DNA from: Escherichia coli
GTDB lineage: Bacteria > Pseudomonadota > Gammaproteobacteria > Enterobacterales > Enterobacteriaceae
Direction: 5' to 3' (one strand)
DNA: 64,000 nt
NCBI RefSeq assembly: GCF_965641715.1
Contig: NZ_OZ282453.1
In this document: piece by piece, positions 33,266 to 33,751 of the stretch
Layout: every line of letters starts with the position of its first letter
Position numbering within the stretch: position 1 is the first letter of the stretch
Position numbers and translations under genes: made by a program
The notes under the pieces: generated by a model
Database searches by the model: none
Told to the model about the DNA's origin: nothing
What the model saw: only the letters and a program-made list of their open reading frames with translations

Positions 33266-33575
33266 AATTCTCATATAGAGCACTGATTATGAGAATGTTA
33301 AAGAGGCGATTTCCCCTTTCTGGGGTTATTCGCTTTTTACTGGAAGGGTTATTTTACAGAGGTTTTTCAAACCCCCTCAATAATAAAAAACGAGCAACAA
33401 ACGAAGAGCGAGAAATAAAATATTGAGACTGGTGAACGGGGTCTGTAAAGATTGTTTAAGAAGTCGGTTTAGGGATTGGTAGATGATTCGGATGAAGCAT
33501 CCTCATAACAATACCAATTAGAAGGTGGCTCTCCCTTTCTGGGGATATCGCCTTGTATCTTAGTGAGTCCAGGAA

Positions 33576-33751
33576 GTTCTCTGTGAAGGGACTTGTCAGT
33601 CCTTTATATTGGCTAATTACAACTTATTGAAAAATAAGCATTTTTAGAAATCACTGTTAAGGTTACAGAGTTCTCTGTGAAGAGACTCGTCAGCTCTCTA
33701 TATTGGCTAATTACAACTCATTGAAAAATAAGCATTTTTAGAAATTGCTGT
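33576..33751. repeat. two tandem 82-bp direct repeats (about 90% identical, 94-bp period)
   Basis: 33576-33657 and 33670-33751 both read gttctctgtgaag.gact.gtcag...tatattggctaattacaact.attgaaaaataagcatttttagaaat..ctgt. Confidence 0.85.

Follow-up and report, generated by a model that had tools for sequence, protein, structure and literature searches.

Tandem 94-bp repeat units in the putative control region of a satellite-like Escherichia coli island

Island structure and gene content

The window that we analysed, a 64,000-nt stretch of an Escherichia coli genome, has an E. coli-like chromosomal gene order (pga, efe, put and rut, then wrbA, agp and tor) that is interrupted by a genomic island at wrbA. 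Within the first codons of wrbA there are two copies of the core sequence GTGCTTT, at 30984-30990 and 42533-42539. An intact wrbA start (ATGGCTAAAGTTCTGGTGCTTT) lies at 30969-30990, and the resident wrbA gene (42509-43114) has a new N-terminus supplied by the island. Because the wrbA start is split off and GTGCTTT is found at both ends, we conclude that the island inserted into the first wrbA codons. Its principal features are as follows.

30991-42539: whole island, about 11.55 kb and about 39% GC, between ymdF and wrbA; flanks about 50% GC
31132-31170: partial third copy of the repeat unit described below (AACTTATTGAAAtAT...CTGTGAAG), about 150 bp from the island left end, found by repeat search
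31743-31905, plus strand: segment matching, in colinear order, the right boundary of the direct terminal repeat of Felixounavirus; equivalent of the repeat end at about 31800
32597-33265, plus strand: Dam-type methyltransferase fused to a C-terminal resolvase-type HTH_7 domain (Pfam)
33872-34060, minus strand: open reading frame of 62 codons encoding a small membrane protein with one transmembrane pass, annotated in relatives as hypothetical
34300-36121: operon of small genes of unassigned function with an HNH endonuclease, followed by genes for 236-aa and 71-aa proteins
37735-39864, plus strand: tape-measure gene (709 aa)
40000-40794, plus strand: tube-initiator gene (264 aa)
40814-42457, minus strand: large serine recombinase of 547 aa, the presumed integrase

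The gene upstream of the repeats had been described simply as a methyltransferase; it is of the Dam type, with the fused HTH_7 domain as a correction to that description. Together with the DNA from 33266 to about 33455 it forms an optional cassette that is missing from related loci L013-L015 and L018-L021. The 62-codon membrane protein has no family match, and we neither recognised a replication initiator nor found Par-type genes among the island proteins. A small resolvase-family gene occurs in 8 of 18 islands examined.

Two island genes connect the element to virulent phages. In about 250 Felixounavirus genomes, the gene right after the tape-measure gene encodes a protein with 75% identity to the 264-aa island protein. 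In phage Bas63 the protein in this position is the tube initiator gp18, and our naming follows that report (PMC12609058). The 709-aa tape-measure protein has about 31% identity over 478 residues to its Felixounavirus counterpart. The other island proteins gave no match to those of phage NBEco005. Felixounavirus genomes have a GC content of 38.9-39.2%.

Relatives with the same gene order are integrated at no fewer than four sites (wrbA, yciI/tonB, yecE and near lpxL), each site with its own recombinase type, and they occur in E. coli, Salmonella enterica and E. albertii. The 1-kb non-coding region that holds the repeats is matched in 448 of 5426 complete E. coli genomes (about 8%), at a median of two places per genome. 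No stand-alone island contig was found in IMG/VR.

Repeat units and hairpins

The repeats had been placed in a non-coding stretch of 600 bp, which proved to be about 1030 bp long (33266-34299) and to contain the 62-codon minus-strand gene. We distinguish the following elements in and beside it.

33306-33338, plus strand: box 1 hairpin, GCGA-ttt-CCCC-tttct-GGGG-ttat-TCGC then TTTTT, by sequence reading
33470-33523, plus strand: 54-bp hairpin module, 94-98% identical to Felixounavirus non-coding DNA
33527-33563, plus strand: box 2 hairpin, GGC-tct-CCC-tttct-GGG(g)-atatc-GCC then TTGTATCTTAG, directly upstream of the repeats
33575-33668: repeat unit a, 94 bp, ending in CTGTTAAGGTTACAG; the extra copy, present in 13 of 18 islands
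33669-33762: repeat unit b, 94 bp, ending in CTGTCAGAGAGGTGA; the universal copy, present in all 17 comparison loci
33834-33857: hairpin terminator separating the repeats from the small minus-strand gene; both strands carry T-runs (minus strand by scan; plus-strand GGGGGTTTT run read from the sequence)

Tandem Repeats Finder reports an array at 33575-33745 with a period of 94, 1.8 copies, 92% matches, no indels and a score of 300, and a repeat search returns 83-nt copies at 33575-33657 and 33669-33751 with 90% identity and a spacing of 94. The two tandem copies of about 90% identity and 94-bp period named in the preliminary description are therefore real; its start positions were one base off and it was otherwise exact. 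Taken at their full 94 bp, units a and b are 92% identical. By reading of the sequence, both contain CTGTGAAG and AAAAAT-AAGC-ATTTTT, so the claim that each unit carries an AAAAAT-N4-ATTTTT inverted repeat and a ctgtgaag motif holds for the window, but among 24 aligned units the inverted repeat is degraded to AAGAACTTTT or AAGAGCTTTT in nine. Beyond the two promoter-like hexamers described below, CTTCACAG, GTTGTAAT and CCA-ATATA are invariant among the 24 units. The block around the partial third copy near the island left end is kept in all 17 comparison loci.

A duplicated box, CCCTTTCTGGGG(T/A)TAT, had also been noticed at 33314 and 33533, and we confirm it as 15/16 identical; by our own estimate, about 0.006 pairs of 16-mers with at most one mismatch would be expected by chance in 1 kb. 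Since both the repeat and the CCCTTTCTGGGG boxes are kept in related islands, neither is a chance occurrence. Both boxes lie in GC-rich stem-loops followed by a T-run, as in terminators, with the T-rich tails on the plus strand. Other islands have the outer stem GAGC...GCTC, NBEco005 has GCCA...TGGC then TTTTATTT, and phage EC106 has GCCC...GGGC then TTGTATTT. Hand parsing thus gives five outer stems, all complementary (GCGA/TCGC, GGC/GCC, GAGC/GCTC, GCCA/TGGC, GCCC/GGGC), around a constant inner stem and with T-rich tails on one strand. Because the outer stems differ and yet always pair, and a T-rich tail follows, we read the CCCTTTCTGGGG boxes as the loop-proximal half of hairpins of the rho-independent terminator type, in a family common to island and phage. 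We accordingly rejected the idea of a duplicated binding box. A simple terminator scan omitted these hairpins, whose stems have internal loops. Box 1, of which 26 nt are 96% identical to NBEco005 non-coding DNA, is likely the terminator of the methyltransferase gene.

The 54-bp module is 98% identical to NBEco005 positions 257-311, inside the phage terminal repeat. It is an indel in both islands and phages: it is missing from L001, L014, L016 and L017 and from the terminal repeat of phage D4, and a short 24-nt form is found in L013 and in phage EC106, where it is inverted relative to the boundary-like segments. Given that it is an indel, absent from D4 and several islands and inverted in EC106, we regard it as a mobile module and not an essential signal.

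Conservation and copy number

We compared 18 islands, that is the window and 17 related loci. The unit is present in all 18, in two copies in 13 and in one copy in five, and none has more than two. Copy-number variation, which the preliminary description had suggested looking for, is therefore real. The single units consist of an a-type 5' end joined to a b-type 3' end, as expected from ordinary unequal crossing-over.

The mean identity of unit b across the 17 loci is 90%, and the next 109 bp (33763-33871), at 95% identity across 16 loci, are the best-conserved non-coding block. For many divergent islands the alignment to the window starts with the first base of the repeat (query position 308) and reaches the operon promoter. 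The first operon gene has 73-74% nucleotide and 63% amino acid identity in L009 and L021. A search of 50,697 phage records for homologues of the repeats or their right flank gave only chance matches, even at E = 10. The repeat region had no match among 72,556 plasmids, and an exact 26-mer of the conserved flank had none in IMG/VR or in contigs representing one genome per species. Based on these comparisons, the units appear to be island-specific cis DNA under purifying selection, since they are universal and about 90% conserved while the adjacent gene drops to 63% amino acid identity, and they have no phage homologue. A plasmid-type origin or partition site was discarded on the plasmid search, and partition is in any case implausible from context, because the element is integrated in the chromosome and has no ParA/ParB-type genes.

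The fused HTH_7 domain raises a different explanation for the variable copy number, namely that the units are binding or recombination sites for an HTH_7 protein, either the methyltransferase fusion or the small serine recombinases, with a hix-like core (TTATTGAAAAAT-AAGC-ATTTTTAGAAAT) and loss of a copy by site-specific deletion. The methyltransferase carries GRP together with HTH_7, eight of the 18 islands have a small resolvase-family gene, and the left half-site of the core agrees with the hix half-site consensus at about 10 of its 12 positions. However, the dyad has a 4-bp centre instead of the 2 bp of hix/gix sites, and in 9 of 24 units the right arm has decayed. L015 has two units but neither protein, and unequal crossing-over suffices for the recombinant single units. 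We consider this explanation very improbable. The HTH regions of the methyltransferase and the recombinases are about 20% identical overall, which does not support a common DNA-binding specificity, an idea that we dropped. We also dismissed the possibility that the small recombinases invert the first non-coding region: the recombinase genes of L001 and L006 belong to unrelated cassettes and are not inverted copies.

Promoter-like sites and a shared octamer family

On the minus strand of each unit, CTTAACAG (or CTCTGACAG) is followed, after 18 nt, by TATTTT. When we applied sigma-70 criteria (two hexamers, 16-18 nt spacing, a -10 with A2 and T6), both units of the window qualified. These and the other promoter-like sites of the region are listed here.

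33631-33660, minus strand: promoter-like site of unit a, TTAACA, 18 nt, TATTTT (consensus scan)
33725-33754, minus strand: promoter-like site of unit b, CTGACA, 18 nt, TATTTT (consensus scan)
33767-33796, minus strand: third leftward promoter-like site, A-tract, CTTGACAG, 18 nt, TATCAA (read from the sequence), inside the 33763-33871 block
34187-34251: back-to-back strong promoter-like sites, TTAACA-18-TATAAT on the minus strand (11/12 matches) and TTGACA-17-TAGTAT, with TG, on the plus strand (10/12; called P_R) (consensus scan)
34262-34278, plus strand: TTAACA-N5-TTAACA pair with 11-bp spacing, operator-like, just 3' of the P_R -10 hexamer

The third leftward site also reads as aaaaatatCTTGACAG, 18 nt, TATCAA; the consensus scan missed it since its second hexamer has no T at position 6. 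The geometry of the unit sites is well kept among related islands. In 30 of 31 units from the 18 islands there is a -35-like hexamer (8-9/12 matches overall), a spacer of exactly 18 nt and a -10 with A2 and T6, and the spacer bases vary. The -10 hexamer of the most divergent island is TATCTT, the same as the -10 of the putative early promoters of the phage. The hexamer overlaps the inverted repeat and is retained even though spacer changes destroy the inverted repeat in 9 of 24 units, so that a promoter fits the pattern better than a dyad binding site. The number of sites found by the scan is not significant by itself, at 12 in 3.5 kb against a shuffle mean of 10.0. The back-to-back sites are conserved in the alignment of related islands. 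The similarity between unit and P_R is weak, its scores being reached by 7/500 and 45/500 shuffles, and we set aside the idea that the unit is a diverged copy of P_R.

The promoter-like sites of the units are flanked by CTTNACAG octamers. These octamers recur at further promoter-like sites in the island, and they are similar both to the -35 boxes of phage promoter-like sites and to the arrays of the phage terminal repeat. The 64-kb window contains 18 copies of CTGTKAAG where 3.3 are expected, a six-fold excess that none of 100 shuffles reaches. Fifteen of these copies are inside the island, 10 of them in its two long non-coding regions; the seven copies outside those two regions include three in intergenic spacers. 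Read in promoter orientation, the octamer sites take the form 'A-rich + taCTTNACAG', which is also that of P_R (aaaataCTTGACAT) and of the intergenic promoter-like modules of the phage (aaagtaCTTTACAgggg-17-TATCTT). The phage modules have been recorded as 57-bp repeats, and Felix O1 depends on the host polymerase (PMC3185647). At about 36206-36240 there is a second strong promoter-like site, whose -35 box is covered by a pair with the same 11-bp spacing as that beside P_R.

We also weighed whether a small structured RNA is encoded by the units, either wholly or as its 5' part with the 3' end at box 2, toward which leftward transcription would run. Apart from the promoter-like sites aimed at this hairpin, the segment after CTGTGAAG is palindromic with a sequence that differs between islands, and the 535-nt minus strand folds better than shuffles (z = -2.8). 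Against this, RNAalifold on 24 units gives a 'structure' of three pairs at -0.6 kcal/mol with one covarying pair, Rfam has no match anywhere in the island at E values up to 1, and box 2 would terminate better on the plus than on the minus strand. We judge an RNA of this kind improbable.

Relationship to Felixounavirus genome ends

The NBEco005 record starts and ends with an identical 651 bp. For phage vB_EcoM_D4, direct terminal repeats were called by PhageTerm (PMC11737134); the D4 repeat is 581 bp and has the same start sequence as that of NBEco005. Positions 31743-31774 and 31862-31905 of the island match NBEco005 595-625 and 714-756 with the same 119-bp spacing, and they straddle the end of the terminal repeat, because the matched phage positions lie on either side of 651. 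The offset to the repeat end is identical in D4, at 26 nt. More than 100 Felixounavirus genomes have unannotated DNA that aligns to this island segment over 156 bp at about 70% identity. Judging by these alignments, the non-coding DNA of the island is partly copied from phage genome ends.

The phage terminal repeat is filled with the word TGTTA/TTAACA (30 forward against 7 reverse, modal spacing 11 bp). It begins with three CTTWACA words 11 bp apart (left end CTTAACAttttCTTTACAttttCTTAACA), so that it opens with the motif and spacing of the TTAACA-N5-TTAACA pair beside P_R.

These links also bear on whether the repeats are a packaging signal bound by the helper terminase or its small subunit. 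The island does hold DNA like the helper terminal repeat (31743-31905 and 33470-33523), and the octamer family of the units resembles the TGTTA/TTAACA arrays. However, this homology to the terminal repeat lies in those two segments, 50-1800 bp from the repeats, and the 54-bp module is an optional one. Neither the repeats nor their right flank have a phage homologue even under the permissive threshold used above, and the phage arrays run in one orientation at 11-bp spacing, neither of which is true of the units. We also tried to align the units to the left terminal-repeat boundary of two phages, and the local alignments were no better than shuffles, so homology to the left end was rejected. A packaging signal is thus an unlikely reading of the repeats.

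The island has the features of a satellite: an integrase, small size, no capsid or terminase genes, and helper-derived genes or sites. Based on this gene content and the shared terminal DNA, we propose that it most likely exploits virulent phages of the Felix O1 type (Felixounavirus) as a satellite, and we infer that it is mobilised by phage. In the literature that we searched, no paper ties 'satellite' to Felix O1, Felixounavirus or Ounavirinae, or cites the accessions of the island proteins. Tandem promoter or origin repeats are a known kind of feature in satellites; this element, the island family and its apparent helper do not appear in that literature.

Discussion

We propose, at a probability of roughly 40%, that the repeats are a duplicated promoter/operator module of the island control region that fires leftward, and not a packaging or partition site. 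Each 94-bp unit would carry a promoter for host (sigma-70) RNA polymerase, and the duplication together with the third site at 33767-33796 would yield an array of two or three tandem leftward promoter/operator modules facing away from the main rightward operon promoter. The array would be insulated on the left by the box 2 hairpin and on the right by the hairpin terminator with T-runs on both strands. The word family in the units is common to the island and its presumed helper, and a candidate phage or island protein could bind the octamers and so link leftward transcription with infection by the helper or with arrival in a new cell. That the sites fire, give a transcribed product and bind a protein at their octamers is what we infer from sequence.

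Several observations keep this proposal tentative. The promoter match is moderate (9/12 with an 18-nt spacer), and leftward of the units there is no universal gene to be transcribed: the closest candidates are the antisense strand of the methyltransferase and variable cargo genes, with the recombinase gene reached only after circularisation, 2.6 kb away. Conservation reaches well past the two hexamers, further than a plain promoter needs. Our estimate stays at the stated level because of the missing universal downstream gene and the extended conservation, and because the scan count does not exceed shuffles, the likeness to P_R is weak and firing is a prediction.

The main rival is a replication origin. 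The preliminary description had considered such repeats typical of origins, partition sites or packaging sites. That they form a conserved, copy-variable non-coding element of a mobile element has stood up in all 18 islands; partition and packaging have not, for the reasons given, and an origin is possible. According to this rival, the units and about 11 octamers of the CTGTNAAG family (33443-33797, AT-rich) would be the satellite origin, bound by an island or helper initiator; the initiator would also autoregulate P_R through the TTAACA-N5-TTAACA pair, and transcripts started at the unit promoters may help to open or prime the origin. The conserved non-coding DNA of the units, beside the first operon, is universal among the islands and specific to them, the octamers within and between the units are spaced 21, 73 and 94 bp, near whole helical turns, and the second non-coding region has the lowest GC (33.5%, low, though not the only such value in the island). 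Replication of a satellite requires an origin, and we saw no other candidate. Precedents exist, as the origins of PLE and SaPI are repeat arrays in non-coding DNA beside rep, and the crr of P4 consists of two 120-bp direct repeats with iterons. However, no island protein is recognisable as an initiator, there is no DnaA box in 33266-34299, and classical iterons (at least three direct repeats of 17-22 bp in helical phase) are lacking, the region having two 94-bp units and 8-mers in mixed orientation. We therefore view an origin as possible but rather doubtful.

The cis replication region (crr) of P4 offers a comparison. As in crr, two tandem units of about 100 bp, each with several copies of an octamer, occur in a satellite. 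P4 crr is bound by the alpha protein, the initiator, and P4 has a separate origin. In our island no initiator was found, and the octamers look like -35 elements.

The proposed promoter module can be likened to tandem early promoters that host polymerase reads in virulent phages, such as A1-A3 of T7 or the repeated putative early-promoter modules of Felix O1, which share close sigma-70-like sites in one orientation, repeated modules, A-rich upstream DNA and a -35 of the form cTTnACA. Unlike these, the island sites lead into DNA without a conserved open reading frame, and they lie in a satellite-like island and not at a phage genome end. A likeness to SRL/SRR, the short-repeat arrays that adjoin the T7 terminal repeat, and to the arrays bound by small terminases at pac/cos sites comes through the presumed helper, whose terminal repeat of 581-651 bp has dense one-orientation TGTTA arrays with 11-bp spacing; the island octamers belong to the same word family. 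The 94-bp units, in contrast, lack this array geometry and are not homologous to phage ends.

At the level of the whole element, the closest parallel is PLE and its phage ICP1. PLE has been described in PMC9410903 and PMC9638900. Both elements are small chromosomal islands with a large serine recombinase and a virulent myovirus as the apparent partner; both contain extended, repeat-bearing non-coding regions and many small genes of unassigned function, and both lack capsid and terminase genes of their own. They have no sequence relationship, and only our island has homologues of the helper tape measure and tube initiator and DNA colinear with a terminal-repeat boundary, without a recognisable RepA-type initiator.

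A broader proposal, which we put forward as a speculative possibility, is that the units are the core cis element (an origin and/or an infection-sensing switch) of the first recognised family of Felix O1-type satellites in Escherichia and Salmonella. One DNA-binding protein would read the CTTNACAG/TTAACA words in the units, at P_R, at 36206-36240 and in the helper terminal-repeat arrays, and would thereby link helper ends to satellite activation.

Felixounaviruses are widely used in Salmonella typing, in biocontrol and in phage therapy. Through its copies of the tail genes and terminal-repeat boundary of these phages, an island family found in Salmonella as well as in about 8% of complete E. 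coli genomes could affect phage efficacy and gene transfer. It would also give a second well-defined satellite of a virulent myovirus, after PLE and ICP1. Among the non-coding DNA common to all the islands, the repeat region is the best conserved, and it marks the putative control region of what looks like a common satellite. The repeat finding is moderate in itself; its value is that it marks an apparent, previously unrecognised satellite of therapeutically used phages.

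Integration site and variable parts of the island

The island (window 30991-42539; 11.5 kb, 39% GC) sits in the first codons of wrbA, into which it was presumably inserted by its large serine recombinase. At the junction (window 42509-42540), wrbA receives from the island a new start codon and seven codons for its N-terminus, such that MSVKARI replaces MAKV and the wrbA reading frame stays open despite the insertion. Stx phages integrated at the wrbA site likewise keep the host gene open, a feature they share with the island. Relatives of the island occupy at least four att sites, and its non-coding region is matched in 448 of 5426 complete E. 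coli genomes. In some EHEC-type genomes (L013; E. coli E2855, O111-type strains), the left part of the island, as far as the small membrane-protein gene, directly abuts lambdoid prophage genes at the tonB site. There the island appears to have undergone recombination with a prophage or to have been overwritten by one.

The methyltransferase, which combines a Dam domain with a resolvase-type HTH_7, is an optional cassette (window 32597 to ~33455). In other islands the left non-coding region has, in its place or alongside it, either an AP2/HNH gene or small serine recombinases, which belong to two unrelated types and may point either way. A 71-aa gene and an HNH endonuclease gene (window 35136-35635) share 97-100% nucleotide identity wherever they occur, whereas their neighbours in the same islands are 73-93% identical, and the two genes are missing or substituted elsewhere. 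Based on these sequence identities and the patchy presence, the pair looks like a recently spreading cassette.

Non-coding sequences shared with Felixounavirus

We find that a non-coding segment of the island (window 31743-31905) is colinear with Felixounavirus DNA at the right boundary of the direct terminal repeat. More than 100 phages share ~70% identity with it across 156 bp, and its core, GATATTTTAAAATTCTGCAAAGGGG, is identical to the phage at 25/25 positions. This segment is the leading candidate for a sequence that mimics a terminase recognition or cut site. TGTTA words crowd the terminal repeat of phage NBEco005 itself (record 87622-88272 = 1-651), arrayed in one direction every 11 bp (30 forward, 7 reverse). 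The repeat starts with three CTTWACA words, likewise spaced by 11 bp; these word arrays go unmentioned in the Felix O1 genome paper.

Island and phages also have hairpin modules in common. The module ATTGGTA...TACCAAT occurs at window 33470-33523, in the NBEco005 terminal-repeat region (L002, 257-311) and in phage EC106 (L003, 3001-3055 and 2275-2300). Among islands and phages alike it is found in long (54-nt), short (24-nt) or absent forms, and in EC106 its orientation relative to the boundary-like segments is reversed. In its behaviour the module resembles a small element that moves or recombines. A further family, with the layout TAGTTGATTCGG-[variable hairpin]-CCTCATAG, is present in EC106 non-coding DNA (L003, ~2775-2805) and in four copies in island non-coding DNA:

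Copies of the TAGTTGATTCGG-hairpin-CCTCATAG family (window coordinates)
31330-31367, hairpin element
31938-31970, hairpin element
33480-33508, hairpin element
34099-34153, hairpin element

Tail genes and the nature of the island

A 590-bp spacer (window 36122-36707) precedes the 236-aa gene. Within it lies a promoter-like site close to consensus (TTGACA-17-CATAAT, ~36206-36240), which a pair of CTGTT words with 11-bp spacing overlaps; two terminator-like hairpins follow (36474-36497 and 36576-36610). This arrangement of promoter-like site and hairpins suggests that the tail-gene operon may be under antitermination or attenuation control.

The island carries Felixounavirus-like tape-measure and tube-initiator genes, and no capsid, terminase or replication genes were found in 30991-42539. 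It has the appearance of a so far undescribed satellite, or of a tail-poisoning defence island, aimed at Felix O1-type phages.
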